From: an uncultured Anaerolineales bacterium
Lineage (GTDB): Bacteria; Chloroflexota; Anaerolineae; B4-G1; SLSP01
NCBI GenBank assembly: GCA_964437445.1
Contig: CAYTGR010000014.1
Span: 3,812-67,811 of the forward strand
Reading direction: 5' to 3'
DNA length: 64,000 nt
Shown: positions 13,281-49,602 of the stretch, piece after piece
How positions within the stretch are numbered: the stretch's first letter is position 1
Layout: each line of letters starts with the position of its first letter
Notes under the pieces: model-generated
Database searches by the model: none
Told to the model about the DNA's origin: nothing
The model's input: the letters and a program-made list of their open reading frames with translations, nothing else
Program-made: the position numbers and the translations under genes

Positions 13281-13296
13281 TTTTCCTTAACCCTCC

Positions 13297-33873: not shown

Positions 33874-34545
33874 ATGGTCGCCGTACCGGCCGCTCAACAA
33901 GAGGAGCAATGGACCGCCGAGCGGATTGCCATGGTGGAGTTGATCCGCTCCCGGGGCGTGCGGGACGTTGCCGTGCTCCAAGCGATGGCGCGAGTTCCGC
34001 GCCATCGTTTTGTTCCTGAGGACGTCCAACGTCACGCCTATGGGGATTATCCACTGCCCATCGGCCACCGGCAAACCATCTCGCAGCCCTACATTGTCGC
34101 CCTGATGACCGAGGCCCTGGCACTCAAACCGGGAGATAAGGTGCTGGAGCTGGGCACCGGCTCGGGCTACCAAACCGCCATTTTGGCCGAAATGGGCATG
34201 GAAGTTTATTCCATAGAGATCATTGCCGCGCTCCATGCGGGCGCGCTGGCACGGCTGACCGAGCTGGGATACACTACCGTCCATCTGCGATTGGGCGACG
34301 GTCACCAGGGTTGGGCTGAACAGGCCCCCTATGTCGGCATCATCGCCACGGCCGCGCCGCTGGCAGTCCCGCCCGCGCTGTTAGAGCAACTGGCGCAGGG
34401 GGGGCGTCTGGTCATCCCGGTGGGGGTCAGCGGCGATTACCAAACCTTGTGGAAAATCGTCAAAACCGGGGAGCATTTCCAGTACCAGGATTTAGGGGGT
34501 GTGGCCTTCGTGCCGCTGGTCCCCGGCTCGCCGTGGAGCGGATAA
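33874..34545 (+). CDS. pcm: Protein-L-isoaspartate O-methyltransferase
   Basis: VPRHRFVPE…TISQPYIVALM…LELGTGSGYQTA match PCMT. Confidence 0.85.
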   Translation: MVAVPAAQQEEQWTAERIAMVELIRSRGVRDVAVLQAMARVPRHRFVPEDVQRHAYGDYPLPIGHRQTISQPYIVALMTEALALKPGDKVLELGTGSGYQTAILAEMGMEVYSIEIIAALHAGALARLTELGYTTVHLRLGDGHQGWAEQAPYVGIIATAAPLAVPPALLEQLAQGGRLVIPVGVSGDYQTLWKIVKTGEHFQYQDLGGVAFVPLVPGSPWSG

Positions 34546-34588
34546 CCCCGCAGGGCGCAGCTCAGCCGGGCCAGCCGCGACCGGCGCA

Positions 34589-35479
34589 TCACAGGTCTAA
34601 CCGCATCTCCACCCGCCGGAAAGTCTCCAGAAAGTGAAAACTCTGCATGGCGGGCCAATGGGGATCATCGGCAGGCAGGTTCTCCATTTTGGTATCCAGC
34701 AGCGGATGTTGCGTATAAAGCGCGTGCAGTAACGCCCGTCCGACCTCAAAGGGATCGCCGGCTTCAGTCTGCAACACCATCCGGCCCAGCTGGAAGATCG
34801 TATTTTGGTAAACAATCCACCCTTGCCCGCCGTTTTCCAGTTCCACCATCAAACCGGCCATGTAGCCGGCCTTGTAGAGCGAAGGGGCCTCATCCAGCCA
34901 TGAAGGAATGCTGCGCCGTTGGGCCAGCAGTTCCAGTGCTGTGGATGAAGGCAACAGGCGGGCCAGGTAAGGCGGCACTTCCACGCGGGGGGGACCAGGA
35001 GGGCGCCGGACTACCAATAGCTCACGGACTTCCACAAAGCCCAGCTTAAGAAAGAGCCGATAGGCCGGCTCGTTGTGCTGAATGACTTCCAGAATGATAT
35101 GGTCGGCCCGCAAGCGGCAGGAATGACCGATCAGGTAGCGCATGAGCATCTCACCGGTCCCCCGGCGGCGGGTGGTGGGCAACACGCCCAGGCGGGTGAT
35201 CCAGGTGTAGCCAGGACGGACACCCAACATGGCCAGCCCCAACATTTCCCCATCGGCCATGGCGACCCCGGAGAGATCCAGGTCCACATCATAAATGTGG
35301 ATATACTCGCGCAAGCGCGCCACGTTCATCGGCATGGGCACGATGTAATCAATGCGCGTCTGGTTGTAAGCCTCCGTCAACTGTTCCAGCGTGAACCGGC
35401 TGGCAGGGAGCAAGGTCACGGCCTCATCGGCCGGCGGGTAGAAATCAAGACAGGGGGAACCAGCAAGTAGAGGGATCAA
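34589..35479 (-). CDS. GNAT family acetyltransferase
   Basis: A core acetyl-CoA motif (RRRGTGEMLM) is present; 296 aa. Confidence 0.6.
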   Translation of the reverse strand: MIPLLAGSPCLDFYPPADEAVTLLPASRFTLEQLTEAYNQTRIDYIVPMPMNVARLREYIHIYDVDLDLSGVAMADGEMLGLAMLGVRPGYTWITRLGVLPTTRRRGTGEMLMRYLIGHSCRLRADHIILEVIQHNEPAYRLFLKLGFVEVRELLVVRRPPGPPRVEVPPYLARLLPSSTALELLAQRRSIPSWLDEAPSLYKAGYMAGLMVELENGGQGWIVYQNTIFQLGRMVLQTEAGDPFEVGRALLHALYTQHPLLDTKMENLPADDPHWPAMQSFHFLETFRRVEMRLDL

Positions 35480-35564
35480 AATGACAATTCCTCATCAGGC
35501 TTTCTTACAGCGTTTTAGTTTTAACAATCACGGTTCACTTTTTACGCTAATTCACTTGCCACGC

Positions 35565-35942
35565 CTACTTGCCACTTGAGTCTCTGAAGAAAGAGGTCAC
35601 CTGGAGAGCAAAATCTTTGACATTAATGGGCTTAGAGATAAAACCAGTACAACCGTAGGCCTCGGCCATCTGGCGAGCGGTATCGGGCGGCCAGGCGGTC
35701 ACCACCACCACCGGCACATCGGTGAGCTCCGGCAACATTTTGATCAGGGCGGCCACCGTCTGCCCATCTAAATCGGGGAGTCCCATGTCCAGCAGAATTA
35801 AGTCCGGCCTTTCTTGCATCGCCATTTGCAGGCCGGCGTTGGCCTCTGTCGCATGGAGCATACGATATCCCAAAATTTCCAGTAAGCGGATAATCAAACG
35901 GGCATCGTAGGGGTTATCTTCCATCAAGAGAATAGTTTTCAT
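35565..35942 (-). CDS. Single-domain response regulator (REC only)
   Basis: DD…D phospho-acceptor (LLDMGLPDLDG), T, and K (ISKP). Confidence 0.85.
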   Translation of the reverse strand: MKTILLMEDNPYDARLIIRLLEILGYRMLHATEANAGLQMAMQERPDLILLDMGLPDLDGQTVAALIKMLPELTDVPVVVVTAWPPDTARQMAEAYGCTGFISKPINVKDFALQVTSFFRDSSGK

Positions 35943-36023
35943 GCCCTATCCTTCGTCAAGTGAAAAAAAGCCAAGAGGTCGGTTCGCCCATACCGGTCCA
36001 GCAATCCACGCGGCGACCGGGGT

Positions 36024-36401
36024 TCACTGAGGAGGCGCCAGGTAGAATCCTACCTTGGCCAATAATTCCATGGCCTGGACCGGTTTGGACAGGTAATCAT
36101 CGCAGCCAGCGGCCAGAAAACGTTCCCGGTCCCCCACCATGGCCGAAGCGGTCAACGCAATGACCAATGTCTGGCGCAGGTCGGGGTCGCTCTTAATGCG
36201 CGAAACCACCTCAATCCCGTCCATGCCTGGTAACCCAATATCCAACAAGACCAGAGCCGGCCGGAGCTCACGCACCATGGTCAAACCGGTCGGCCCATCT
36301 TCAGCCTCATGGAGCACATAGCCGCGCGACGAGAGGATTTTACGGACCAATCGGCGGTTATGGTAATTATCTTCGATATACAAAATGTTATCGTCTGGCA
36401 T
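36024..36401 (-). CDS. Single-domain response regulator (REC only)
   Basis: LLDIGLPGMDG…LTASA…YLSKP. Confidence 0.85.
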   Translation of the reverse strand: MPDDNILYIEDNYHNRRLVRKILSSRGYVLHEAEDGPTGLTMVRELRPALVLLDIGLPGMDGIEVVSRIKSDPDLRQTLVIALTASAMVGDRERFLAAGCDDYLSKPVQAMELLAKVGFYLAPPQ

Positions 36402-36406
36402 TAAGC

Positions 36407-38488
36407 CTACTCCGACAATAAATTTTCCACATAGGTCAACAGGTGGCTGCGATCCAGGGTCGTCTTGTCCCAGACCGATTCCACCTGTGTCCCGAGCTGC
36501 CCCCGCGCCTCCGGGGTGAGTTCCTTGCTCGTGATGACGATCACCGGAATGTTCCGGCTCTGCTCACGAGTTCGCAGGGCCGCCAACAGTTGCTCGCCGC
36601 TCATATCCGGCAACAACAAATCCAGCAGGATCAAATCGGGCAGCGTCTGCTCAACCAGTTCCAACGCCTCTTTGCCGGAGTAGGCCTCCAACACCTCAAA
36701 CCGCTGGCGGGACTCCAGCAACCGTCGCATGAGCCGCGACTCCCATACATTATCCTCAACTACCAGAATATGCAAACGGCGGGTCCGGCCAAAAGCAGCC
36801 ACCGGTCGCTCCTCGGCCGGATGAGGTGAGGTCAGGTGTTGGAAGGCAGCGTCGTCGTCGCCCAGCAATTCGGAAACATGCCGGACCAGTTCACGCCCGC
36901 TAAAGCTGCCCTTCTGCCAGACCGAATCGCTATAATCCCTCAAATAATCGGCCTCCTCCGACGTCAAGGTCTTGGCCGAAATGACAATCACGGGAATATC
37001 CCGGGTGCGCTCATCGGCCTTGAGCGCTGAAAGGACCGCCATCCCGTCCATGTCCGGCAGGGTGAGGTCCAGCAGGACCAGGCCGGGCCGGCGCTGGCGC
37101 ACGAGGTCAATTCCATCCACCCCCGTATAGGCTTCCAAGACGCGGTAGTTTTTGTAGCTTTGCAAGAGCCGGCGGATCAGCCGATTGTCGTGAGGATTGT
37201 CGTCAATCACCACTAACGTGGTAATCTGTTCATCCAGCTGCTCCAGGGCCGCCGCCAACCCCTCTACCGGGCGGCGACCGGCCGGGGCCTGGGGCGCTTC
37301 CAGGCTAACAAAGTAGCGATCCTCCAGAGCATGTTTTTCGGCGCTGAAGGTATGGCCGGAGCAGTTAATCACGACCCGTTCCCCAGGCCGAATGTGGCCC
37401 AGCGCCAGCAGCTTGTCCAGGCCGGCAAAGGCCACGCTGGCCGCCGGTTCCATGGAGAACCCCTCCAGGCGCGCAATCCGGCGCATCGTGCGAAAAGCGT
37501 CGCCATCACTGACCGCCACCATCGCCCCACCGTACTGATCCACCATCCGCTTCAGCAGCGAATACGAGAAACCGGGGTTACCGGTCGCCAACACGGTGAT
37601 GAGGCTATCGGGTTGCACCGGCGTCGCTTTATCCAGCCCCTGTTCCCAGGCGCGGACCATTGGCGCACAACCTTCGGTTTGCACGATCCCCAGGTGGGGA
37701 ACGCGGTCGGTCAAGCCGGCGGCGTGCAGCTCTATGAAGCCCTTGAGCACCCCCAGCGGGCCAATCCCGCCGGAGACAGCCTGAATGTACCAGTCGGGGG
37801 CCTGCCAGCCCAGCTGCTCGGCAATCTCAAAAGCGATCGTCTTCATACTTTCCTTGCACGGGATCGCCTTCGCCCCACCATCCATCAGGAGATGATGACG
37901 GGCGGCAAAATCGGCCGCGATTTCTTTAGCCTGATCGTAGGTGCCGGTAATTTTGACGACCTCGGCCCCGTAGAGCGCCAGTTCACGCATTTTCTCCACC
38001 GGCACGCTGCTGGTGAGAAAAACCCACAGTTTGATGCCCGCGCGGGCACAGTAAGCGGCGTAAGCCGCCGCCGCATTGCCGGTCGAGGCCAGCACTAATT
38101 CCTTGATCCCCTGAGTGCGCAGGGCGGTGACGGCGACCGAGGCTTGCCGGTCCTTGAAAGAGCCGGTCGGCTGCTGGCGTTCGTCCTTGATCCAGAGTTC
38201 CCCGTGGCCGCTTTCGCGCTCCAATCCTTCCGCGCGGGTCAACGGCGTCCACCCCTCCCCCAGCGAGAGCACGGAAATGTCATCGGGAAAGGGCAGCAGC
38301 TCGGTGTAACGCCAGAGCGTCGTGGCCCGCTGCTTGACCAGGGCCGGCCAGTCGGCCGGCAAGGCCGCGCAGTCATAGACGGCATCCAGCCAGGGGCTGC
38401 CACAACCAGCGCACTTGGTGATGAAGGGACTGGCAGCCATCAGCTGGCCACATTCCAGGCACCGCACCGCGGTTAAAAGCGTACTCAT
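36407..38488 (-). CDS. Threonine-synthase-like PLP enzyme fused to two C-terminal REC receiver domains
   Basis: An N-terminal zinc ribbon (CLECG…CAGCG) precedes the PLP-lysine motif TGSFKDRQASV, a Gly-rich loop (SGGIGPLG) and a tryptophan-synthase-beta-like fold of ~400 aa. Two complete REC domains follow (VVIDDNPHDNRL…LLDLTLPDMDG…VISAK and LVVEDNVWESRL…LLDLLLPDMSG…VITSK). Confidence 0.75.
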   Translation of the reverse strand: MSTLLTAVRCLECGQLMAASPFITKCAGCGSPWLDAVYDCAALPADWPALVKQRATTLWRYTELLPFPDDISVLSLGEGWTPLTRAEGLERESGHGELWIKDERQQPTGSFKDRQASVAVTALRTQGIKELVLASTGNAAAAYAAYCARAGIKLWVFLTSSVPVEKMRELALYGAEVVKITGTYDQAKEIAADFAARHHLLMDGGAKAIPCKESMKTIAFEIAEQLGWQAPDWYIQAVSGGIGPLGVLKGFIELHAAGLTDRVPHLGIVQTEGCAPMVRAWEQGLDKATPVQPDSLITVLATGNPGFSYSLLKRMVDQYGGAMVAVSDGDAFRTMRRIARLEGFSMEPAASVAFAGLDKLLALGHIRPGERVVINCSGHTFSAEKHALEDRYFVSLEAPQAPAGRRPVEGLAAALEQLDEQITTLVVIDDNPHDNRLIRRLLQSYKNYRVLEAYTGVDGIDLVRQRRPGLVLLDLTLPDMDGMAVLSALKADERTRDIPVIVISAKTLTSEEADYLRDYSDSVWQKGSFSGRELVRHVSELLGDDDAAFQHLTSPHPAEERPVAAFGRTRRLHILVVEDNVWESRLMRRLLESRQRFEVLEAYSGKEALELVEQTLPDLILLDLLLPDMSGEQLLAALRTREQSRNIPVIVITSKELTPEARGQLGTQVESVWDKTTLDRSHLLTYVENLLSE

Positions 38489-38695
38489 TGGTTATACCTC
38501 GTGGCGTCACTCTCTTTTGGGACGATTGCTTGCCTGCCCCGAAAAACCCGGCCCTGAACACGCAGCAGGCGCGGAGGTTTCATTTAAACAACAACCAACA
38601 ACCAATCTCTGCGTATTCAGCGCGCTCGGCGATAAAAAGGCTCTTGCAGCAAAATCAGCTCATGTCGTGCGCCGGCAACGACCTGAACGCTGCAA

Positions 38696-38745
38696 CGCAC
38701 TTCCGGTGGCCCCTACCCACGTTATTCTTCGCCACCGGAAGTGCG
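38696..38745. promoter_or_regulatory. Perfect 15-bp inverted repeat CGCACTTCCGGTGGC-N20-GCCACCGGAAGTGCG
   Basis: Read from the sequence. It lies in the 288-bp spacer between the REC-cyclase gene and the ThrC-REC-REC gene and has no flanking U-tract on either strand. Confidence 0.5.
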
Positions 38746-38775
38746 CCGCCCCCCAACAACCAGCGTCCACCGCCC

Positions 38776-39852
38776 CTATTCCGCGTAACCCGGCTTGAGG
38801 CCCAACACCTCATAGGCCCGGATCGGCGTCGTGATCCCTTTGCCGTACAAGGGTAACACTTCCCTGGCCTCGGCAACCGCTGTAACCGCTTCATAAGTCG
38901 GGCTATCCACCAGGATCTGACCGGCTTCGGCGTTTTCCTGCAACCGCTTGGCCAGATTGGGAATATGGCCGATCACGGTATAATCCATAAACTGATCCGA
39001 CCCAATGTTGCCCACCACGGCTTCGCCAGTGCCGATCCCCACCCCCAACCCCAGCTCTCGCATCAGCGGCCGCTCCCGGCAGAGTTGGGCAAAGCGCTGT
39101 TGCATGACGCAGGCCGTAATCACTGCCTGTTGGGCACCATTGACCAGGATCAGCGGGGCCCCGTAGACCGCCATGATGGCATCCCCCAGATATTTATCCA
39201 ACATGCCGTGATGCTCAAAGACCACCGGCGTCAACCGGTTGAAAACGTAATTGAGCATTTCAATGACCTCACCCGCCTCACGGGTCTCCGAAAAGTGGGT
39301 AAAGCCCCGAATATCGGCAAAGAGCACACTGACCGTGCAGCTCCGTCCCCCCAGTTGCAGGTTCTGTTCGGGATTGCTGAGGATCTCCAGGGCGACGTCG
39401 CGGGAGACGTACCGCGTCAGCACCCGCTCCAGCAGCGCGTTTTTGACCTGCAGTTCGTCGGTCAGCTGCTTGATCCGCAACAACGAACGGACCCGGGCCA
39501 ACAGCTCCACGGCGTTGAACGGCTTAACCAAAAAGTCGTCAGCTCCGGCCTCCAGGCCCCGGACCTTGTCCTCCATTTCCCGGAGCGCGGTCAACATCAG
39601 GACGGGGATGGCCCGGCTCTCCGGTGCACTCCGCAGAGCGCGGGCCACCTCATAACCATCCAATCCCGGCATCATCACATCCAGCACCACCAGGTCAGGT
39701 AGATTCTGGTGGACCATCTCCAACGCCTGCAGCCCATCGGACGCCGTGAGCACGACATAGCCCTGCCGGGAAAGCAACGATTCCAGCAACCGGATGTTGC
39801 GTTCGTTATCGTCCACTACCAGGACCTGGGCATGTCCATCTGGGTTGGGCAT
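38776..39852 (-). CDS. Response regulator with class III adenylate/guanylate cyclase output domain
   Basis: A REC domain (VLVVDDNERNIRLL…VLDVMMPGLDG) precedes a CYCc domain (VLFADIRGFT…KYLGDAIMAVYGAP…GIGTGEAVVGNIGS). Confidence 0.85.
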   Translation of the reverse strand: MPNPDGHAQVLVVDDNERNIRLLESLLSRQGYVVLTASDGLQALEMVHQNLPDLVVLDVMMPGLDGYEVARALRSAPESRAIPVLMLTALREMEDKVRGLEAGADDFLVKPFNAVELLARVRSLLRIKQLTDELQVKNALLERVLTRYVSRDVALEILSNPEQNLQLGGRSCTVSVLFADIRGFTHFSETREAGEVIEMLNYVFNRLTPVVFEHHGMLDKYLGDAIMAVYGAPLILVNGAQQAVITACVMQQRFAQLCRERPLMRELGLGVGIGTGEAVVGNIGSDQFMDYTVIGHIPNLAKRLQENAEAGQILVDSPTYEAVTAVAEAREVLPLYGKGITTPIRAYEVLGLKPGYAE

Positions 39853-39879
39853 AATTTGTCCGTATCCCTCATCCTGAGG

Positions 39880-42800
39880 TTATCCGGCACCGCCCTCAGG
39901 ATCTGCCGGGGCAGTTTGGATGGGCAAACGGACCGTAAAGACGCTCCCCTTACCCAACTCACTGCTCACTTCAATAGTGCCGCCGTGCATCTCCACCAGA
40001 TAGCGGGTGATCGCCAGCCCCAGTCCTGTCCCCTCGGCGCGCCGCTTGCTGGAACCATCTACCTGCCGGAACTTCTCAAAGATTTGCTCCAGCTGATTAG
40101 CCGGGATGCCAATGCCGCTATCGGCGACTTCAATGCAGACCCACGGATCGCTGCGGTAGGCGCGGACCTGGACGTAGCCATGTTCGGTGAACTTCATGGC
40201 GTTGCTGATCAGGTTGTTGAGCACCTGGTTGAGCCGGATGCGGTCGGCGTGGAGCAGCGGCAGGTCTGGTTCCGATGCAATCCGCAACTCCACCGCCTCG
40301 GTCCGCTGGTACTTGCGGAGCAACCCGGTGCCGCTGGATTTCACCTCATCCAGCAGCTGGTCTACTTCTACCTCTTCCATCTTGAGCACCATGCGGCCGG
40401 CCTCAATCTTGGCCAGATCCAACACATCGTTGATCATGCTGAGCAGGTGCTGCCCGTTTTCATGGATAGCCTTGACATCTTCCAGCGTATCCCCTTCCAG
40501 CTCACCATCAATGCCCATGAGCAGCACTTCGGCGTAACCGATGATAGAGTTGAGCGGCGTCCGCAGCTCATGGCTCATGTTGGCCAGGAACTCGCTCTTT
40601 AGCCGGTCCAACTCGCGGAACCGCTCGGCCACGTGCTGAAGTTCCTCTACGTAGCCGGCATTCTGGAAGGCGGTCGCGATCTGACCGGCCAGGGTGCGGA
40701 AGACGTCCAGCTCAGCTGGGCCGAAGCGAGCCGGTTCGTCGTCCTGCACATCAAAGACGCCCAACACCCGGTCGCCGTACACAGCCGGCACCGCCACCTC
40801 CGACCGGGTAAGTGGAAGCAACGGGTTCGGCAGGTGATCGGGAGACTTGGTGACATCGTCCACCACGACAACTTCCTTGGTGCGGGCCGCCCGGGCCACC
40901 AGACTCCGTTCCGTGTTGAGCGGGATGCGGTGCCCCCGGGCTACCATGACGCGGCCAGGCTCGCCGTATCCGGCTTGCAGCACTAACTCCTGGGTCTCCT
41001 CGTCTACCACGTATACCTGGACGTGGTAGATGTCAAACCGCTCTTTGATCAAGGAGACTACCCGGCTGAACAGGGCCTGCGGATCCAGGATAGAAGCGAC
41101 CTGAGTGGAGATATCCGCCGCCGTGCGCAACTGAGCCGTCAGCCGGGCGCGCTCCTCCTCGGCCCGTTTGCGGGCGGTGATGTCGCGGATGATAGAGACA
41201 AAGCCGCTGGGCGCGCCTGTGGCATCACGCAGCAGCGCCGCGTTCATTTCCGCCTCAAACTCACTCCCGTCGCGGCGCACCATCCGGTACTCGGCCGTCT
41301 GGCTGGTGCCGGTCTCCAGAGCCCGCCGGACACTCTCGGCAGCTTTGGACCAGAAGGGGCGGGTAAAGAGCTGCATGGAGCTGCGACCCAACAGGTCGTC
41401 GCGGCCACTGTAGCCATAGAGCCGCAGCGTCGCTTCGTTCAAGTCCTCAATCTTGCCCATCATGTTGGTGACGGTGATCCCTTCGGTCATCGCGTCAAAC
41501 ATGGCCCGGATCTTCTCCGCCGCCTCACGTTGAGCCGCTTCCGCCTGGCGCTGCTGCTCAAAGAGCCGGGCACTCTGGAAGGCGTTGGCGATCTGACCGG
41601 CCAGAGTCCGGTAGACATCCAGGTCCGATTCGGTGAAGTAGTCCGCCTGATCGGATTGGACGTCAAAGACGCCCAAGAGCCGATCACCGATCATGGCCGG
41701 CACTGCCACCTCAGCCCGTGTATCGGGCAGCAGCAGGTTCGGCATGAAGTCCGGGTCCTGCGTCACATCGTTGGCCAGCGCGATCTGCCGGGTGCGAGCC
41801 GCCCGGGCTACCAGGCTTTGTTCCTGATCCAGGGTGATCTTGAAGCCCTGCTGCCGCATGATCCGTCCTACCTGGCCGTAGCCGGCTCGCAGCACCAACT
41901 CTTGGCGGGCCTCGTCCATGACATAGAAGTGGACATGGTAGAGATTAAACCGTTCTTTCAGCAGCGGGATCACCTCGTCAAGCAGCTCGTCGGTATCCAG
42001 AATGGCACCGACCTGCGCGGAGATCTCGGCCGCGGTGCTCAGCTGGGTGACAAACCGTTCCCGCTGCGCCTCTGCCCGTTTGCGTTCGGTGAGGTCAATC
42101 CCGGCACCAACCAGGTAGACCTGGTCGCCCACCGCCAGCCGTGTCCCGGTCACGAGATAGGGAACCGGGCGACCCGTCTTGCTCAGAAGATGCGCTTCCG
42201 CCTCTGCATAACCGGTGGTAAACACCTCATTCATACGGGCGACGATCAGGGCGCGATCCAGCTCGGCAATGGTGTCCAGGACCTTCACCTGGGGCATCTC
42301 GGCCGGGGTGTATCCCAACACCTCTTCATAGCGGCGGTTCCAGCGCACCAGGGAGCCGGCCTGATCATAAAGGTAGAAGATGACCGGCAAACTGTTGATC
42401 AGAGCGTTAGAGAAGTCGCGTTCGCCCGCCACCGCCGCTTCCGCCTGCTTGCGCTCCGTGATATCGCGCACGTTAGCGAGTACCATGTCGCGCCCGCCCA
42501 ACGTGACCCGGCGCAAGAAAACCTCAGCGTCAAAGGTCGTACCATCATGAGGGCGCTTGGCTTTCCATTCAAAGAGCTGCGGCTGGCCAGCCATCACCCG
42601 CTGCCAGAGAACACCCAGCTGGTCCAATGGATTGTCCGGGCTGGAGTAATCATCGGCGATGGAGAGCCGAGTGGCCTCCTCCCGGCTAACGCCGTACATC
42701 TCCAGGATTTTGTCGTTCACGTCCACGATGGCCCCCTCCGCTGTGTGCAGGAAAATGCCATCGTAAACGCTGTTAAAGACTGTGCGTAAGAGCAGTTCCG

Positions 42801-45800
42801 ACCGCTGAATTCTCTCTTCCGCCTGCTTGCGCTCGGTGATGTCGCGGACCAGAGCGAGGGCCTGATCGGTGCCGACGCGGCTCATACGGGCCTCGTAACT
42901 GTGCATGGTCTCGCCGAGGGGAGCCTCGTATTCATAAGTGACCGGTTCGCCGGTCGCCAGTACCTGCTTCAGGTACTTCAACGTTGGCTCCGCAATCTGC
43001 GGCGGCAGGACCGTCCCCAGGGGCTTGCCCAGGAAGAGCTCGGGCGGCACCAGCAGTTCCTGCCCGGCCTCGGCCTTGAAGTCCTGGAAGATGCCCGCGG
43101 CATCAAAGACGAACATCATATCAGGAACCGTCTGCAACAACGCCCGGTTACGGGCGGCACTCGCCTCGGTAGCAACGTAGAGACTGGCATTCTGGAAGGC
43201 GGTGGCGATCTGCCCGGCCAGCGCCCGGAAGACGTCCAGGTCCGCCTCGGTGAAGTAACCCGGCACATCGTGCTGCACGTCAAACACCCCGATCACCTGC
43301 CCACCCGCGATGGCCGGCACCGCCACCTCCGACCGCGTCTCCGGCAACAACGGGTTCGGCAGGAAGTCCGGCGCGGCCGTCACGTCCTCCACCACCACGA
43401 CCTCCTGCGTCCGTGCGGCGCGCGCCACCAGGCTCTTCTCCGCCTCCAGCGGGATGCTGTGCCCCCGCTCCAGCATGATCCGTCCGGGTTCCCCGTACCC
43501 GGCCCGCAACTTCAGCGCCTCGCCCTCCAGCGTGTAGACGTGCACGTAGTACAACCCAAACCGCTCTTTGATCAGCGGGATCACCGCCTGCAACAACTCG
43601 TCCGGGTCCAGGATGGACTGCACCCGTGCTGCAATCTCCGCCGCTACACTCAACCGTTGCGCAAACCGCTCCCGCTCCGCTTCCGCTTGCTTGCGCTCGG
43701 TAATGTCAAAGAAAGCGGAAAGCAGCACTGGTTCCCCCTCCAGTTCAAACGGATCAATGGAGAGGTCGCTCCAGAACATCCGGCCATCATCCAACCGCTT
43801 GAGCCGTAGCTCGTAGTGACTCAGCCGCCCCTCGGTCTGGACTGTACTCACTACCTGTTGCCGCTCCGCCGGATCATAGTAGAGATCCACCGTCGTCTGG
43901 CCGAGCATGTCGGCCGCAGACTTACCGAACATCACACTGAATTGTTCGTTGGCGTAGAGGATCGTCCCATCAGCCACGCGGCTCACCACCAGACTTACCG
44001 GCACGGTCCCCAACACCTGCCGCTGCCGTGCCTCCGCCTCCCGGAGCGCCTGCTCGGCCCGCTTGCGCTCCGTGACGTCTTCAAAGGTGCCATCCAGATA
44101 CTCGGGTTGGCCCGCAGCATCGTAAACCAGGCGGCCACTGAGCGCAATGGTGATCACGCTACCATCGGCACGGCGGAACAGTACTTCAAAGTCGGTGACC
44201 GGACCCTGGGCCAGCGTCTCCAACAGCCGCTGGCGTTCCTGGGGATCAACATAGAGGTTGGACAACCCAACCTTATTGATCGCCGCCACCGAATCAAAGC
44301 CGAGAATGCGTAACATGGCCGGGTTGGCGGCCACTACCTGCCCGGCCGGGGTCGTGCGGAAGATGCCGACCAGCGCGCTATTCACCAACTCCTGGAATCT
44401 ACTCGCCGCCTCCGCCGCCCGCTCCCGCAATTGCGCCGCTTGCAGCGCGACCGCCCCCTCTTCTACCAACGCCCGATACAACGCCAGTTTGGCCTCATCA
44501 AAATACCCCGGAATGGCCGCGGCCAGAGAGAGCACTCCCAACCATTCCTCGCCCGCGGTAATCGGCAACAGCGCCAGGCTGGCCGAGCCCTGCTGCACCA
44601 GCAACTGCCGCGTCGCCTCATCCAAATGCGGATCGGTGGTCGCATCGGCAATCACAAAAGACCGATCCCGCCCGACCGCTCTGAGCAACGGCAGTTGTTT
44701 GGCCGTGAAGCGCGTACCCAAGGGAATGACCGCCGAAAGGCCGCTCTCCGCCCCTGCTGCCCGCACCAACACCGTGGTCAGCTCTTCCGCCGTAGCGTCT
44801 ATCAGGTGCAGCGTCACCCGTGCCGCCGGGAAAATGGTGGCCTGTTCCGCCAGCGTATCCAACACGGCCGCCTCGGTCTGGGCTCCCGCCAGGGCCTGGC
44901 TGATGCGCAGCCGCAACTGCGCTTCGGTGTACAACTGCGCGTTCTGGAAAGCGGTGGCGATCTGCCCGGCCAGCGCCCGGAAGACGTCCAGGTCCGCCTC
45001 GGTGAAGTAACCCGGCACATCGTGCTGCACGTCAAACACCCCGATCACCTGCCCACCCGCGATGGCCGGCACCGCCACCTCCGACCGCGTCTCCGGCAAC
45101 AACGGGTTCGGCAGGAAGTCCGGCGCGGCCGTCACGTCCTCCACCACCACGACCTCCTGCGTCCGTGCGGCGCGCGCCACCAGGCTCTTCTCCGCCTCCA
45201 GCGGGATGCTGTGCCCCCGCTCCAGCATGATCCGTCCGGGTTCCCCGTACCCGGCCCGCAACTTCAGCGCCTCGCCCTCCAGCGTGTAGACGTGCACGTA
45301 GTACAACCCAAACCGCTCTTTGATCAGCGGGATCACCGCCTGCAACAACTCGTCCGGGTCCAGGATGGACTGCACCCGCGCTGCGATCTCCGCCGCTACA
45401 CTTAATCGCTGCGTGTACCGTTCACGCTCCTCATCCGCCTGCTTGCGTTGGATGACCTGCCACAGCCCGGTCGCCAGCAACGTCAATTGCTGCACATCGC
45501 TGTCCGTATAGTCTTCTGGCTTGTTGCCTACCCCCACCACCATGACGATGTGTTCCCCGTCAAAGATCGGGGCATTCATGTGCCGCTTGACTTCTACGTG
45601 CCCCTGAGGATAGCCGCGCTTCCAGGGGTTGGGCTCGTCGTAATCGTTAGTGATAATGGCTCGCCGCTGGCGTATCGCCTCTCCCCACAGCCCGGTCGTG
45701 ACTACTGGATATACAATCGGCTTATCAATGATCTTGCACTGCGCCATGGCTCCACCCGACCAGGCATGCATGGTCATCACCGATTCATCGGCATTAACAA

Positions 45801-48366
45801 ATGCCAGGTAACTAATAGGGCTGTCGGTAATGTGCCCAAACTCTTCAATGGCGTAATCCAGGATCTCCTTGAGCGGCGCCTCCGCCATCTGGCTCAACCG
45901 CAACAGTGCTCGCTGGCGGATGTCATCCAACTGCATCGCTTTCTCCGCCTGCTTGCGCTCGGTGATATCCAGGAAGGCCCCCTGCGTGGCCGGCCGCCCC
46001 TCGTAGCTGATGATGGAGCTGTACATCATCACATCCATGGCGGTCCCGTCCTTGCGCAGCAAACGGGACTCGTAAGTATCTGGCACCGCTTCACCGGCAA
46101 CACGCTGGCGAGCAATGGTCCCCACTCGCTCTCGCTCATCGGGATGGATCAAGTCCAAAATAGAGCGGCCAGCCACTTCCGCCGGATCACTGTACCCCAA
46201 CAGGCGCGCGGCCTCATGGCCCAGGTATTTGATAATCCCATCTTGATGGACGAAAATCCCCACCGCAATGTTGTCCGCTAAAACCCGGAACTTTTCCTCC
46301 GATTCCCGCAACGCCTGCTCGGCCGCTTTCCGTTCGGTAACATCGCGGCTGTTCACCACAATGCCGGCAATGCCCGCTACGGTAGAAGCCTGTGCCGAGC
46401 CTTCCATGGTGCGCCAGGAGCCGTCTTTATGGCGGAAGATGTACTCGGCGTGAACTACTGCTCCCGGCTGCTGGCCTATCCCGGCCAGCAAAGCAGCGAT
46501 CCCCGGCACGGTTTCCGGCGGGATGAATTCCACGACTGAACGGCCAATCAGTTCCTCCGGTTCATAGCCCAGGATGCGTTTGAGGGAGGGGCTTTGGTAA
46601 GCAATCAGGCCTTCAGGGCTGACAATGGTGATCAGATCGGAGGAGTTCTCAATCAGCGCCCGGAACCGCTGTTCATTCTCGTGCAGGGCGGCCTCCGCCT
46701 GGACCCGGTCGGTGATATCGGTGATCAGGCCCTCCAAAGCAACAACGTTGCCTTCTTCATCCTCAATGCCACGTCCCTGCTCCCACACCCAACGGATGGT
46801 GCCATCGCGGTGCACAATACGGTAGGTAGCCTGGTAAGGTTGGTGGGCCTGAAGCGCGGCCTGAACCGTTTCCCAAACAGCGTTCTGATCTTCGGGATAG
46901 ATGAGATCCCCAAAGGAGATTTCTCCGCCCAGCATCAACGCTTCAGGGGCGTAACCAGTGAGCGCCAGGCTGCCCTCACTGACAAACTCTGCCGGCCAGT
47001 CCGGCCGGTTCAACATCCGATAAACCATGCCGACCAGGTTCCCCATCAGGGTCGTCAGACGGCGCTGGCTTTCACGCACAGTGGCCTCCGCCTGCCGCTG
47101 CGCCTCAAACAGTTGCGCGTTTTCCAAGGCCACCGCAATCTGCCCGGCCAGCGTTCGGAAGACATCCAGGTCCGCCTCGGTGAAGTAACCAGGAGTATCA
47201 TGCTGGACGTCAAAAACGCCCAATACTTTGCCTCCCGCGATGGCCGGCACGGCCACTTCCGATTTCGTTTGGGGGAGCAAGGGGTTGGGCAGGAAATCCG
47301 GCTCAGCCGTCACATCGTTTACCAGTACCGGGACCTGAGTCCGGGCAGCGCGGGCTACCAGGCTCTGCTCGGCCAACAACGGGATGCGGTGTCCCTGCGC
47401 CACCATGATCCGCCCCGGTTCACCGTAGCCGGCCCGTAGCTCCAGCGTTTCGCCTTCCAGCGTGTAAACATGCACGTAGTAGAGCCCGAACCGCTCCTTG
47501 ATCAACGGGATCACCGCCTGCAACAACTCATCCGGATCCAGGATGGACTGCACCCGCGCCGCGATCTCTGCCGCCACACTTAACTGCCGGGTATACCGCT
47601 CCCGTTCGGCTTCTGCTCGTTTGCGCTCGGTAATATCTTTGACGGTCCCCAAACTGGCAACCTGTCCGCCCAGCTGCACCAGGCCGACGGTCATATTGAC
47701 ATCCACGCGGGTGACCCCATCCTTGCGCAGCATCCGCCACTCGTAAGCGGGCGGCACCGGTTCACCGGCCTGCCGGCGCCGATAGCTCTCCGCCACTTTC
47801 GGCAGATCCTCCGGCGCAATCAACCGGGTGAATTCCATCCCGATGATTTCCTCCACGGTGTACCCGACAATGTCAGCAAAGGCCTGGTTGGCAAAGATCA
47901 TCTTCGCGTTTTGGATGATAAAAACGCCATCCTGGATATTTTCTGCCAACACGCGGTATTGAGATTCTGACTGGGCGAGGGCTATTTCGGCCTGTTTGTG
48001 TTCGGTGATATCCATCAAGGTAGTCAAATAAGCCGCTTCGCCCTGATAAGTGACCGCCTGTACAACCAGCGATAACCAGACCGGACTGCCATCGCTCAAC
48101 CGCCGGCCCCGCATTTCATAATCCTGCACCAGGCCGCGTTCCTGCAAAGTCGCCAACAACGCTGTGCGCTCGGCCGGATCGTAATAGAAATCTGGCGTGA
48201 CATGGCCGACCAGCTCGGCCGGCGGTTTGCCGGCCAGCGCCCCAAAGCGCTCATTGGCGTACAAAACCTGACCGTCCTCGCGGCGGCTGATCAGCGCCGC
48301 GACCGGTAAGGCCTCCAGCAGCCAATACTGCTGTTCAATCTCCTTGTTGACCTCAACAGCGTTCAT
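39880..48366 (-). CDS. Giant (2828-aa) multi-PAS/multi-GAF sensor histidine kinase
   Basis: About 9 PAS/PAC and about 6-7 GAF domains (GAF openers such as ERERYTRQLSVAAEIAARVQSILDPDELL recur five times) are followed by HisKA (NMSHELRTPLNSIIGY) and HATPase_c (DSGIGIP…GTGLGLAI). There is no REC domain. Long near-identical internal DNA repeats are present. Confidence 0.85.
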   Translation of the reverse strand: MNAVEVNKEIEQQYWLLEALPVAALISRREDGQVLYANERFGALAGKPPAELVGHVTPDFYYDPAERTALLATLQERGLVQDYEMRGRRLSDGSPVWLSLVVQAVTYQGEAAYLTTLMDITEHKQAEIALAQSESQYRVLAENIQDGVFIIQNAKMIFANQAFADIVGYTVEEIIGMEFTRLIAPEDLPKVAESYRRRQAGEPVPPAYEWRMLRKDGVTRVDVNMTVGLVQLGGQVASLGTVKDITERKRAEAERERYTRQLSVAAEIAARVQSILDPDELLQAVIPLIKERFGLYYVHVYTLEGETLELRAGYGEPGRIMVAQGHRIPLLAEQSLVARAARTQVPVLVNDVTAEPDFLPNPLLPQTKSEVAVPAIAGGKVLGVFDVQHDTPGYFTEADLDVFRTLAGQIAVALENAQLFEAQRQAEATVRESQRRLTTLMGNLVGMVYRMLNRPDWPAEFVSEGSLALTGYAPEALMLGGEISFGDLIYPEDQNAVWETVQAALQAHQPYQATYRIVHRDGTIRWVWEQGRGIEDEEGNVVALEGLITDITDRVQAEAALHENEQRFRALIENSSDLITIVSPEGLIAYQSPSLKRILGYEPEELIGRSVVEFIPPETVPGIAALLAGIGQQPGAVVHAEYIFRHKDGSWRTMEGSAQASTVAGIAGIVVNSRDVTERKAAEQALRESEEKFRVLADNIAVGIFVHQDGIIKYLGHEAARLLGYSDPAEVAGRSILDLIHPDERERVGTIARQRVAGEAVPDTYESRLLRKDGTAMDVMMYSSIISYEGRPATQGAFLDITERKQAEKAMQLDDIRQRALLRLSQMAEAPLKEILDYAIEEFGHITDSPISYLAFVNADESVMTMHAWSGGAMAQCKIIDKPIVYPVVTTGLWGEAIRQRRAIITNDYDEPNPWKRGYPQGHVEVKRHMNAPIFDGEHIVMVVGVGNKPEDYTDSDVQQLTLLATGLWQVIQRKQADEERERYTQRLSVAAEIAARVQSILDPDELLQAVIPLIKERFGLYYVHVYTLEGEALKLRAGYGEPGRIMLERGHSIPLEAEKSLVARAARTQEVVVVEDVTAAPDFLPNPLLPETRSEVAVPAIAGGQVIGVFDVQHDVPGYFTEADLDVFRALAGQIATAFQNAQLYTEAQLRLRISQALAGAQTEAAVLDTLAEQATIFPAARVTLHLIDATAEELTTVLVRAAGAESGLSAVIPLGTRFTAKQLPLLRAVGRDRSFVIADATTDPHLDEATRQLLVQQGSASLALLPITAGEEWLGVLSLAAAIPGYFDEAKLALYRALVEEGAVALQAAQLRERAAEAASRFQELVNSALVGIFRTTPAGQVVAANPAMLRILGFDSVAAINKVGLSNLYVDPQERQRLLETLAQGPVTDFEVLFRRADGSVITIALSGRLVYDAAGQPEYLDGTFEDVTERKRAEQALREAEARQRQVLGTVPVSLVVSRVADGTILYANEQFSVMFGKSAADMLGQTTVDLYYDPAERQQVVSTVQTEGRLSHYELRLKRLDDGRMFWSDLSIDPFELEGEPVLLSAFFDITERKQAEAERERFAQRLSVAAEIAARVQSILDPDELLQAVIPLIKERFGLYYVHVYTLEGEALKLRAGYGEPGRIMLERGHSIPLEAEKSLVARAARTQEVVVVEDVTAAPDFLPNPLLPETRSEVAVPAIAGGQVIGVFDVQHDVPGYFTEADLDVFRALAGQIATAFQNASLYVATEASAARNRALLQTVPDMMFVFDAAGIFQDFKAEAGQELLVPPELFLGKPLGTVLPPQIAEPTLKYLKQVLATGEPVTYEYEAPLGETMHSYEARMSRVGTDQALALVRDITERKQAEERIQRSELLLRTVFNSVYDGIFLHTAEGAIVDVNDKILEMYGVSREEATRLSIADDYSSPDNPLDQLGVLWQRVMAGQPQLFEWKAKRPHDGTTFDAEVFLRRVTLGGRDMVLANVRDITERKQAEAAVAGERDFSNALINSLPVIFYLYDQAGSLVRWNRRYEEVLGYTPAEMPQVKVLDTIAELDRALIVARMNEVFTTGYAEAEAHLLSKTGRPVPYLVTGTRLAVGDQVYLVGAGIDLTERKRAEAQRERFVTQLSTAAEISAQVGAILDTDELLDEVIPLLKERFNLYHVHFYVMDEARQELVLRAGYGQVGRIMRQQGFKITLDQEQSLVARAARTRQIALANDVTQDPDFMPNLLLPDTRAEVAVPAMIGDRLLGVFDVQSDQADYFTESDLDVYRTLAGQIANAFQSARLFEQQRQAEAAQREAAEKIRAMFDAMTEGITVTNMMGKIEDLNEATLRLYGYSGRDDLLGRSSMQLFTRPFWSKAAESVRRALETGTSQTAEYRMVRRDGSEFEAEMNAALLRDATGAPSGFVSIIRDITARKRAEEERARLTAQLRTAADISTQVASILDPQALFSRVVSLIKERFDIYHVQVYVVDEETQELVLQAGYGEPGRVMVARGHRIPLNTERSLVARAARTKEVVVVDDVTKSPDHLPNPLLPLTRSEVAVPAVYGDRVLGVFDVQDDEPARFGPAELDVFRTLAGQIATAFQNAGYVEELQHVAERFRELDRLKSEFLANMSHELRTPLNSIIGYAEVLLMGIDGELEGDTLEDVKAIHENGQHLLSMINDVLDLAKIEAGRMVLKMEEVEVDQLLDEVKSSGTGLLRKYQRTEAVELRIASEPDLPLLHADRIRLNQVLNNLISNAMKFTEHGYVQVRAYRSDPWVCIEVADSGIGIPANQLEQIFEKFRQVDGSSKRRAEGTGLGLAITRYLVEMHGGTIEVSSELGKGSVFTVRLPIQTAPADPEGGAG
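43181..43650. repeat. Intragenic direct repeat copy A (~470 bp, near-identical to 44933-45402)
   Basis: Identical antisense ORF translations at 43310-43537 and 45062-45289. Direct comparison shows only a handful of mismatches near the ends. Confidence 0.85.
44933..45402. repeat. Intragenic direct repeat copy B (1752-bp offset from copy A)
   Basis: As above; it encodes a duplicated GAF-PAS module of the kinase. Confidence 0.85.
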
Positions 48367-48492: not shown

Positions 48493-49602
48493 TTAACGGT
48501 CCTGGACCAGGCGGTTGACCAGGGCCAACAACGCCTCCATAGTCACCGGCTTTTCCAGGTAAAAATCAACGTCCAGCTCATTACAGAGCTCCCGATATTG
48601 AGCGTGGCCGGAGATGACGATCACCTGCACTTCGTTCTGTCGGAAGGTCATGAGCTGCTCCTGCAACAAATCGGTGCCCCGCTCATTGCCGAGGTGAATG
48701 TCGCACACAAAAACATCAAAGCGATGCTGAGCCAACAAACTGCGCGCGGCCTGCAGCGTAGTCGCCAGGCTAACCTGATATCCGGCTTTGGAAAAAGCCT
48801 TCCCGTAAAGCCGCTGGAGCGATTCGTCGTCTTCCAATACCAGAACCCGCCAGTGTTTCAAGTTTGCCAGGGCCTGGCAAAGGGTTGCAGCGGACTCGGG
48901 CCGATGGACGAGATCGCTCAACGTCAGGCTACCCAAGGCGCGCAGCTGGCCCAAGAGCTCCGGGGATTCAGGAGGATTCAACAAGACGATGCGCGTTGGC
49001 GGGCTGAGCTGGTGCGCCCGCCGGATGAAATCCAGCCCATTGAGGGACCCGATGTGCATCCCGGTGACAATCCAGTCAAACTGCTCCCGCCTGAGGCTAT
49101 TCAACGCTTCATCCAACAACATCGTGATTTTAACGTAATGTTCTTTGCTTAGCGCCTGGTAGAGCGTGATAGCCTCTTGGGGATCATCTTCTATGATCAA
49201 GACCTGTTGCCGTTTAACCTGGGTTGAAACCGGCGGTAATAACGCCTCCAAAGCTGCCTCGCGGATTTCCGCAATATCCAGGGGCTTCTGTAAGCAGCGT
49301 TGCACCGCCAGGCGCTGGGCGTCGGCGTCACGCCGGCCATAGGCGGTCATCCAGATCACTCTGGTCTCCGGTGCCACTCCCCGGATGGCTTCCGTCAAGG
49401 CCACCCCATCCATCCCTGGCATCCGCAAATCGGTAATGATCAGATCAAACGGAGCCGCACGGAACTTCTCCAGCGCTTCCTGGCCGTCCCGTGCGGTGAC
49501 AACCTCGTAATCGGCACCCAGCTTCATCAAGCTCCCGTTAACGACAAAAAGCACTCTTTCGTCATCATCAACAGCCAAAATTCGTTTTGGGGCGCTCATC
49601 AA
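48493..49602 (-). CDS. Triple-REC protein (three tandem receiver domains, the middle one degenerate)
   Basis: REC1 is ILAVDDDERV…ITDLRMPGMDG…MTAY. REC2 is LIIEDD… and lacks the canonical DxxD…D. REC3 is VLVLEDDESL…VCDIHLGNERG…ISGH. Confidence 0.75.
   Translation of the reverse strand: MMSAPKRILAVDDDERVLFVVNGSLMKLGADYEVVTARDGQEALEKFRAAPFDLIITDLRMPGMDGVALTEAIRGVAPETRVIWMTAYGRRDADAQRLAVQRCLQKPLDIAEIREAALEALLPPVSTQVKRQQVLIIEDDPQEAITLYQALSKEHYVKITMLLDEALNSLRREQFDWIVTGMHIGSLNGLDFIRRAHQLSPPTRIVLLNPPESPELLGQLRALGSLTLSDLVHRPESAATLCQALANLKHWRVLVLEDDESLQRLYGKAFSKAGYQVSLATTLQAARSLLAQHRFDVFVCDIHLGNERGTDLLQEQLMTFRQNEVQVIVISGHAQYRELCNELDVDFYLEKPVTMEALLALVNRLVQDR

Follow-up and report, generated by a model that had tools for sequence, protein, structure and literature searches.

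Two-component systems are mostly understood through their effects on transcription, second messengers and motility. Fold-type II pyridoxal-phosphate (PLP) enzymes carry appended regulators of several kinds: IlvA has a C-terminal ACT-like domain, cystathionine beta-synthase a C-terminal pair of CBS domains, and plant threonine synthase (ThrC) an N-terminus that binds its activator, S-adenosylmethionine (SAM). Among the relatives of ThrC, cysteate synthase acts on O-phosphoserine, and MetM, as Hasebe and colleagues are said to have reported in 2024, is a homocysteine synthase dependent on O-phosphohomoserine and a MetO thiocarboxylate. MetM converts O-phosphohomoserine and the protein thiocarboxylate into homocysteine and is ‘often misannotated’ as ThrC (GapMind 2026 preprint). 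A MetM-like enzyme of Microcystis has both ThrC and threonine-deaminase activity, and Planktothrix holds a third ThrC paralogue, ThrC3, which shows 34.5% similarity to the Microcystis enzyme and is without an assigned function (PMC12172450). The fusion of phospho-receiver (REC) domains to ordinary metabolic enzymes is an acknowledged general trend (PMC5847659). The subject here is a gene in which a ThrC-like PLP enzyme is followed by two REC domains. It lies on a stretch of 64,000 nucleotides (nt), hereafter the window, from an uncultured Anaerolineales bacterium (GenBank assembly GCA_964437445.1, contig CAYTGR010000014.1, positions 3,812 to 67,811; coordinates in Table 1).

The fusion protein is best read as a response regulator with a PLP enzyme as its output, switching a reaction that is probably other than bulk threonine synthesis; the probability of this reading is put at roughly 0.55. 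Its open reading frame is unbroken; it starts with ATG, and a GAGG ribosome-binding site lies 9 nt 5' of the start. An earlier note on this DNA had claimed a PLP enzyme with a zinc ribbon, an SFKDRQ lysine motif and a glycine loop, followed by two complete REC domains with intact Asp pockets, and this layout is borne out in both halves. The Pfam family PALP matches the enzyme with an E-value of 1.1e-69 (235 bits; cut-off 35), and Response_reg (PF00072) matches in two stretches (E 9.5e-37, 126 bits against a gathering score of 30.2). The best Foldseek matches in the PDB are the threonine synthases of M. tuberculosis, A. aeolicus, T. thermophilus and B. subtilis, at template-modelling (TM) scores of 0.83-0.87 (target-normalised), with plant ThrC, the cysteate synthase CapA2 and serine/threonine dehydratases ranked lower. 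Together with the alignment of K112 to the catalytic lysine of the T. thermophilus enzyme, these matches place a fold-type II PLP fold with its Schiff-base lysine in the fusion. An AlphaFold2 model of the full-length monomer, built from 101 homologues (mean predicted local distance difference test, pLDDT, 83; predicted TM score, pTM, 0.59), contains a confident ThrC-like PLP domain and two (beta-alpha)5 receiver folds, joined by linkers (residues 385-421 and 549-569) with pLDDT below 50.

Conservation was counted in an alignment of 101 sequences of the fusion family. The zinc-ribbon cysteines and K112, within SxKDR (F111 being F or L), are invariant, as are S135-T-G-N138, G240, G241, G243, C274, C376, G378 and H379; S110, D113, R114 and S377 are invariant or nearly so. 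The glycine loop 238-VSGGIG-243 varies at a single position, I242 (I in 93 sequences, L in 8). The pocket of REC1 has the acidic pair D429/D430, with D430, D474, S504 and K526 present in 101/101. In REC2, where the acidic pair is E578/D579, the counts are 91/101 for D579, 98/101 for D623, 99/101 for S or T at position 653 (T653 here) and 101/101 for K675. Both receivers have the beta5 motif S-[VI]-W-x-K-[GA] in place of the usual K-P, and REC2, 45% identical to REC1, is its tandem duplicate. The alignment shows strong purifying selection on the catalytic lysine, on the loops that anchor PLP and on the phospho-acceptor pockets of both receivers. Because the catalytic and phospho-acceptor residues are conserved, enzyme and receivers both look functional.

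The stretch between enzyme and receivers is conserved in parts. H379, T380, F381, E384, K385, L388, E389, D390 and E420 are invariant, and G410, L415, L418, D419, Q421 and T423 are at least 90% conserved. A helix with the motif EGLxxALxQL precedes the receiver both in the two-REC family and in a one-REC sister family described below; stand-alone relatives stop before it. Since it is conserved in both fused families and missing from the stand-alone enzymes, this pre-REC helix, EGLxxALEQLDEQ, is the best candidate for an element coupling receiver to enzyme.

As regards what the enzyme is, the best NCBIfam matches are threonine-synthase models, and the protein is below the curated cut-off of each. 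The window protein scores 160.8 with TIGR00260 (cut-off 167.1) and 277 with PRK08197 (NF006050, also named threonine synthase; cut-off 303), and the relatives P0012, P0121 and P0123 are likewise below the ThrC cut-offs. When compared with three solved ThrCs (T. thermophilus, A. aeolicus, M. tuberculosis) and three other canonical sequences, the PLP domain of the fusion retains the cofactor-anchoring elements of the solved enzymes. All the pocket motifs that are constant in canonical ThrC are exchanged for others, equally conserved across the 101 family members: STGNA replaces canonical STGNT, DxGAKxIPxKESMK replaces NSxNPxRxEGQK, VSGGIG replaces GN(A/L)GN, TVLATGNP replaces TAIRIGNP, and NCSGHTFS replaces TG(H/N)GLKD. 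T88, N154, S155, R160 and N188 of T. thermophilus ThrC, which Omi et al. (2003) are reported to have assigned as phosphate ligands, align to A139, G204, G205, C211 and G240 of the fusion; the G204 position is variable across the family and the C211 position is G in most members. A reading of these exchanges as outright loss of the phosphate pocket was softened, as the pocket Arg of the MetM-like enzyme falls within one column of the clade-conserved K207.

Two related genomes hold both kinds of gene. In the loci L043 (an Aggregatilinea metagenome-assembled genome, MAG) and L032, a second, ThrC-like gene with all the canonical motifs lies no more than 10 kb from the fusion; that of L043 has a zinc ribbon and scores 258.2 with TIGR00260. 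In these genomes at least, the fusion is therefore a paralogue that coexists with a housekeeping thrC. No other thrC is present within the 64-kb window. On these comparisons the enzyme is a paralogue of canonical ThrC and not an orthologue, and probably something other than the housekeeping ThrC, which makes ordinary threonine synthesis an unlikely task for it. The proposal of the earlier note that the role lies beyond threonine biosynthesis is thereby supported, by the missed cut-offs, the clade-specific pocket and the coexisting canonical genes.

The nearest relatives of the PLP domain are found elsewhere in the superfamily. It is 52% identical to A0A1J1LK38 of Planktothrix tepida and 50-53% identical to P0558, P0419 and P0124, compared with 31-38% to canonical ThrC, MetM-like and PRK08197 enzymes (33-34% to the canonical ThrCs specifically). 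A0A1J1LK38 matches the ThrC3 of the literature, because its 35% identity to the MetM-like enzyme corresponds to the published 34.5% similarity (PMC12172450). Identity of at least about 45%, together with the motifs FKDRQ, STGN[AV], D-x-G-x-[KR], E-x-MK, VSGxxGP and NCSGH, was used to delimit a group to which the informal name ‘ThrC3-type’ is given here; the window protein falls within it and carries the signature as STGNA, D-x-G-A-K207, ESMK, VSGGIG and NCSGHTF. By sequence, then, the PLP domain belongs to a fourth clade of the ThrC superfamily, an uncharacterised one.

Table 1. Features of the fusion gene and of its neighbours in the window.
Feature	Position	Strand	Residues or size	Remarks
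Whole fusion gene: zinc ribbon + ThrC3-type PLP enzyme + REC1 + REC2	36407..38488	-	693 aa plus stop
Cys4 zinc ribbon, N-terminal	38393..38467	-	~8-32	C10, C13, C26, C29; Cys invariant in 101 sequences
PALP (fold-type II PLP) catalytic domain	37355..38266	-	75-378	Pfam and Foldseek ThrC matches
PLP Schiff-base lysine codon	38153..38155	-	K112	SFKDRQ; aligned to K61 of T. thermophilus ThrC (1UIM)
Post-PALP segment H379-R391, variable spacer and pre-REC helix EGLxxALEQLDEQ	37220..37354	-	379-423
REC1	36863..37219	-	424-542	Phospho-acceptor D474 (codon 37067-37069)
Inter-REC flexible linker	36776..36862	-	543-571	Poorly conserved; residues 549-569 pLDDT <50
REC2	36413..36775	-	572-692	Phospho-acceptor D623 (codon 36620-36622)
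Probable cognate sensor kinase: PAS/GAF arrays + HisKA + HATPase_c, without REC	39880..48366	-	2828 aa	Pfam
REC + class III nucleotidyl cyclase	38776..39852	-		Pfam
RECa, stand-alone receiver	36024..36401	-		Pfam E 1e-26; starts 5 nt past the fusion stop codon
RECb, stand-alone receiver	35565..35942	-		Pfam E 7e-19
Tandem-GNAT acetyltransferase	34589..35479	-		Pfam Acetyltransf_1; last conserved gene of the module
Triple-REC protein, without output domain	48493-49602	-	369 aa
MEDS-PAS-GAF histidine kinase, without REC	50840-55348	-	1502 aa

The genes of the window from 55348 down to 34589 are all on the minus strand, in the order (5' to 3') MEDS-PAS-GAF kinase, OmpR-type regulator, triple-REC protein, large PAS/GAF kinase, REC-cyclase, fusion, RECa, RECb and GNAT. 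The setting of orphan RECs and REC-less giant kinases that the earlier note had pointed out is thus real, with two REC-only genes, a REC-cyclase, the triple-REC protein and two kinases. The phosphorelay neighbourhood around the fusion is unusually dense, and no Hpt protein was seen in it.

Neighbours were counted in the best 80 related loci, each count being limited to those with enough flank. A kinase core on the same strand lies upstream of the fusion in 50/60 loci, directly adjacent in 37, and is also present in L084. A single REC gene follows the fusion in 69/74, and many loci have a second one (106 single REC genes in 72 loci). An orthologue of the GNAT lies downstream in 36/70 (43-66% identity), and an orthologue of the REC-cyclase is found directly upstream in 13/60 (57-69% identity). 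Gene spacing is tight, 2-5 nt, in L084 and in the window. Since the flanking genes beyond this block vary among relatives, the conserved module can be given as kinase, optional cyclase, fusion, one or more single RECs and optional GNAT. The frequency of the kinase upstream and of the single REC downstream makes it very likely, from gene context, that the fusion accepts phosphate from neighbouring kinases, as the earlier note had suggested.

The spacing ahead of the fusion differs between loci: 287 nt separate the stop codon of the REC-cyclase from the start of the fusion in the window, compared with 2 nt for the same gene pair in L084. Within the 287-nt gap is a perfect 13-bp inverted repeat, CACTTCCGGTGGC ... 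GCCACCGGAAGTG (window ~38694-38742, minus strand), with a loop of ~22 nt and no U-tract, which could be a terminator, an attenuator or a protein-binding site. A scan for promoters and terminators gave counts not convincingly over the shuffled expectation.

The GNAT family is restricted to Chloroflexota and found on the same contigs as the fusion. The AlphaFold2 model of the window member (pLDDT 89.5) resembles the tandem GNATs MshD, CBG, VipF and Eis at modest TM scores of 0.55-0.67; its substrate is not fixed by the fold, because tandem GNATs include both small-molecule and protein acetyltransferases. Past the GNAT lie a Ser/Thr protein kinase with an N_BRCA1_IG domain (31861-33864, plus strand), a small ACT_7 protein and a PCMT repair methyltransferase, none of which is kept with the module in relatives (L081 16644-17108 was compared). 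The 2828-residue kinase has a feature of its own, five copies of a 300-nt repeat unit. Two of these, at 43187-43486 and 44939-45238, lie 1752 nt apart and share 99% identity. This points to a GAF-containing module that was duplicated within the gene very recently, or possibly to repeats that were collapsed or expanded in assembly.

A search with the nearest stand-alone enzyme brought up a sister family in which the same type of enzyme is fused to one REC. It has ~548 residues, comprises more than 100 clusters and goes by the NCBI name ‘threonine synthase’; its single REC shares the beta5 motif QKGSF with REC1. In the four loci inspected (L086, L089, L090, L091) the module consists of the PLP-REC fusion, a REC-HisKA-HATPase gene and an EamA transporter. 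The transporter is just downstream in 4/4 loci, with orthologues 47-59% identical, and the REC-HisKA-HATPase gene stands between in 3/4; none of the 80 two-REC loci has an EamA gene. A GNAT upstream in L091 proved unrelated to that of the window. Stand-alone ThrC3-type genes occur in two complete Planktothrix genomes (L092 and L093) and on a cyanobacterium-like contig (L087). Here the gene is convergent with an SDF-family transporter, with a 10-nt overlap in the Planktothrix genomes, and after the transporter come an SBP_bac_3/PG_binding amino-acid-binding protein and a dCache_1-HAMP-class III cyclase, an arrangement conserved among the three cyanobacterial loci. In its gene content, the cyanobacterial neighbourhood echoes the transporter and cyclase associations of the Chloroflexota.

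Other ThrC-like proteins were met in the course of these searches. In L024 a PRK08197-type paralogue (12621-13772, plus strand; 588 bits; SFKAR, EPYRVEGKK, TGGGTG) follows the fusion and a REC gene, in the position held by the GNAT at other loci. It is below the TIGR00260 cut-off (162.6 against 167.1), and the pocket motifs of the PRK08197 clade are unlike those of canonical ThrC; the name ‘threonine synthase’ of PRK08197 (NF006050) may be an over-annotation like that of MetM. Eight proteins of 611-633 residues (P0157, P0162, P0199, P0209, P0227, P0238, P0247 and P0262) form another ThrC-like clade (VFKDR, GD-YxFRxEGQK). P0157, the one scanned, ends in a LeuA_dimer allosteric domain, another appended regulator on a ThrC-like fold. 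P0218 is an RNase H/RVT_3-PALP fusion.

If the fusion is a response regulator, the adjacent PAS/GAF kinase would phosphorylate D474 of REC1 and probably D623 of REC2, and the REC pair would then rearrange or dimerise. The change would be relayed via the conserved pre-REC helix to the PLP domain, normally a dimer, and would switch a beta- or gamma-replacement or an elimination on an amino acid. O-phosphohomoserine, O-phosphoserine or another O-phospho-amino acid is the likely substrate and the best guess for the electrophile, because the characterised members of the branch use such compounds (ThrC and MetM O-phosphohomoserine, cysteate synthase O-phosphoserine) and the basic K207 is kept. The single-domain RECs may compete for phosphate as sinks or serve as connectors, and the REC-cyclase may provide a parallel second-messenger output of the same module. 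The GNAT, or the EamA exporter in the sister family, would act on the enzyme product; a specialised amino acid, or one used in signalling, is likelier here than bulk threonine. The phosphorylation-gated chemistry and the signalling-metabolite product that the earlier note had suggested are both still inferences. A bolder extension, a long shot at present, is that the ThrC3-type enzyme makes or destroys a new non-proteinogenic amino-acid signal, that in Anaerolineae a sensor kinase switches its synthesis directly through the fused receivers, after which the GNAT acetylates the product or, in the sister family, EamA exports it, and that the SDF transporter, binding protein and dCache-cyclase receptor of the cyanobacteria form the counterpart; if true, one amino-acid-based signalling circuit would be common to two phyla of filamentous bacteria.

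Several points weigh against the response-regulator reading. We infer every biochemical step of the proposed mechanism from sequence. The earlier note had proposed to look for a REC domain packed over the active site, and the AlphaFold2 monomer model (pTM 0.59) gave no confident contact of either receiver with the enzyme or its active site; because of this the allosteric route is conjecture. The GNAT occurs at about half of the loci and the cyclase at about a fifth, so that neither is obligatory, and co-transcription with the kinase is uncertain in the window because the 287-nt gap holds the inverted repeat. The receivers are C-terminal, the less common order in response regulators, so the enzyme could be input and not output. 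As for the reaction, canonical thrC was seen alongside the fusion in two genomes, both of them those of relatives, P0124, a stand-alone relative, narrowly clears both ThrC cut-offs, and K207, next to the column of the MetM-like pocket Arg, is K or R in most of the clade. Because this basic residue is kept, the enzyme may use O-phosphohomoserine and may even have residual threonine-synthase activity.

These last points lead to the first alternative, that the fusion is a genuine threonine synthase (EC 4.2.3.1), converting O-phosphohomoserine to threonine, with its flux under two-component control. The best NCBIfam and PDB matches are threonine synthases and public annotation agrees, and besides P0124 and K207 it can be cited in favour that even the divergent MetM-like enzyme of Microcystis has ThrC activity in vitro (PMC12172450). 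Yet the window protein and three relatives lie under both curated cut-offs while a co-resident canonical ThrC reaches 258, identity to canonical ThrC is just 33-34%, all the canonical-constant pocket motifs have been swapped for equally conserved ones, and L043 and L032 possess a canonical thrC as well. A regulated threonine synthase is therefore regarded as unlikely.

A similarly small chance is given to the idea that the PLP domain is an input, in which binding or turnover of an amino acid gates the phosphorylation or dephosphorylation of the protein's own RECs. The fusion would then be a phosphate sink or connector under metabolite control, and through it the other outputs of the kinase, the REC-cyclase and the single RECs, would be tuned. 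The order of the domains, enzyme N-terminal and receivers C-terminal, is input-like; the module is rich in receivers and without a DNA-binding output; a relay is suggested by the REC-HisKA-HATPase kinase that comes after the fusion in the sister family; and the beta5 of the fused RECs is atypical, without K-P. An invariant and complete catalytic apparatus, however, exceeds the needs of ligand sensing, the same clade has stand-alone members that are plain enzymes, and the linked EamA or GNAT genes suggest export or modification of a product.

Sulfur incorporation of the MetM or cysteate-synthase type, in which an O-phospho-amino acid would react with a sulfur nucleophile under phospho-control, is judged improbable. 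Sulfur chemistry has arisen repeatedly among ThrC paralogues, MetM and cysteate synthase being often misannotated as ThrC (GapMind 2026; PMC12172450), the invariant C274 and C376 lie close to conserved motifs, and the cysteate synthase CapA2 (9K3C) is detectable as a structural relative. It is a distant one (E 2.6e-14), however, and the cysteate synthase model TIGR03844 scores 127.1 against a cut-off of 324.9. The MetM lineage was represented by proxy, with the Microcystis enzyme (51.6% identical to MetM), one of two Microcystis sequences recovered from the proteomics table of PMC12172450. At 32% identity to the MetM-like Microcystis thrC_1 the window domain is no nearer to it than to canonical ThrC. 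It also has other pocket motifs, and membership in MetM was rejected. No Rfam model matches at E <=1 within 34000-40500 save a chance-level match to a snoRNA model (E 0.79, within the RECb gene), and there is no SAM riboswitch or relevant Rfam element upstream. Every gene of the conserved module is accounted for and none is a small sulfur-carrier-like gene, although no search aimed at MetO was made.

The fusion is widespread. More than 120 full-length clusters, 62-99% identical and all with PALP and Response_reg, came out of a search of 5.8 billion proteins; they are labelled ‘threonine synthase’ by JGI and ‘pyridoxal-phosphate dependent enzyme’ by NCBI and derived from MAGs of Anaerolineae, Thermoflexales and other Chloroflexota. 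No isolate with the fused form was found in the cluster look-ups, the named members all being MAGs. A scan of one genome per species gave at least 572 matching stretches, and in the best 80 loci the match is full length, with 48-71% identity. The records nearly all bear Chloroflexota names (Anaerolineales, Thermoflexales, Ardenticatenales, Caldilineaceae, Aggregatilineales and Phototrophicaceae), and two records are titled only ‘bacterium’. The identical 693-residue protein is present on four contigs from three samples (one JGI metagenome and two SRA runs), with constant neighbours. An artefact, be it a frameshift, an assembly chimera or gene-calling read-through, might be suspected in metagenome-derived DNA with plentiful REC genes nearby, but the two-gene join about which the earlier note had been cautious is excluded by that recurrence, by the same continuous reading frame in more than 100 homologue clusters that align over their full length and in 80 species-level genomes, and by the conserved linker helix, leaving such an origin a negligible chance.

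Some members depart from the usual layout. Four two-REC proteins (P0067, P0099, P0101 and P0102) have 773-799 residues, ~85-100 more than the others; in P0099, the only long member scanned, the PALP match falls in two stretches, which suggests an insertion within or after the catalytic domain. P0137 (492 residues) combines HATPase_c with PALP. Either read-through or a frameshift has joined kinase and enzyme here, or the upstream kinase is, in a rare case, fused directly to the enzyme.

The earlier note had also called the architecture undescribed. In the full-text literature searched no paper describing a PALP/ThrC-REC fusion was found, and to that extent the claim stands; the architecture is not rare, having a large Anaerolineae family and a one-REC sister, and fusions of RECs to metabolic enzymes are a known theme. 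The combination of a ThrC-superfamily PLP enzyme with receivers is common in genomes, uncharacterised and mis-annotated. The fusion family would wire a sensor kinase to PLP-dependent amino-acid chemistry, in Anaerolineae of sediments, wastewater and the subsurface, an abundant and poorly studied class. The annotation ‘threonine synthase’ of the ThrC3-type clade can mislead metabolic reconstructions, as has already happened for MetM. The reaction of the clade, once known, would be a new activity of the ThrC superfamily and could reveal a regulated specialised metabolite, and the fusion family could show how receiver domains gate a dimeric PLP enzyme. The stand-alone members in cultured Planktothrix offer a tractable way in.

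Set beside the known systems, the fusion resembles each in part. With canonical ThrC (1UIM/1V7C, 2ZSJ, 2D1F, 6CGQ) it has in common the fold, the SFKDR lysine motif, the STGN carboxylate loop and an S/T-G-H near the cofactor, and the N-terminal zinc ribbon is also found on the co-resident Chloroflexota ThrC; it differs in its low identity, in its position below the curated cut-offs and in its two C-terminal RECs. The ThrC3 of Planktothrix tepida (A0A1J1LK38 / WP_222425234.1) and the cyanobacterial P0419 and P0502 are closer, at 50-53% identity to the window domain, with the motifs FKDRQ, STGN[AV], D-x-G-x-K, E[SG]MK, VSGxMGP and NCSGHT[FY] and with linkage to a transporter and a class III cyclase, but these enzymes are without REC and end just after SGHTYPVEE. 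MetM and the ‘unique ThrC’ of Microcystis are alike in being ThrC paralogues with a new reaction, misannotated as threonine synthase, and MetM illustrates how the superfamily has branched out around O-phospho-amino-acid substrates; at 32% identity they have pocket motifs of their own (STGNL, NLRPYYSEGSK, ASGSL, KSIAIGNP), and MetM lacks a REC fusion.

Response regulators with enzymatic outputs (CheB, PleD/WspR, RpfG and RssB) provide the parallel on the signalling side, a REC with an intact acceptor fused to an enzyme beside a histidine kinase, and PleD also has tandem RECs; the wider principle, an enzyme brought under environmental control, is shared as well (PMC5847659). In the window protein, by contrast, the RECs are C-terminal to the enzyme and their beta5 is without K-P, and they are joined to a fold-type II PLP enzyme of amino-acid chemistry, an output that does not figure in the literature searched. 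IlvA, cystathionine beta-synthase and plant ThrC (1TDJ, 9D2Q, 6ZS7 and 2C2B, all Foldseek neighbours) likewise have a regulator appended to the same fold. Their modules sense metabolites directly, whereas that of the window protein is a phospho-receiver, apparently wired to a sensor kinase.

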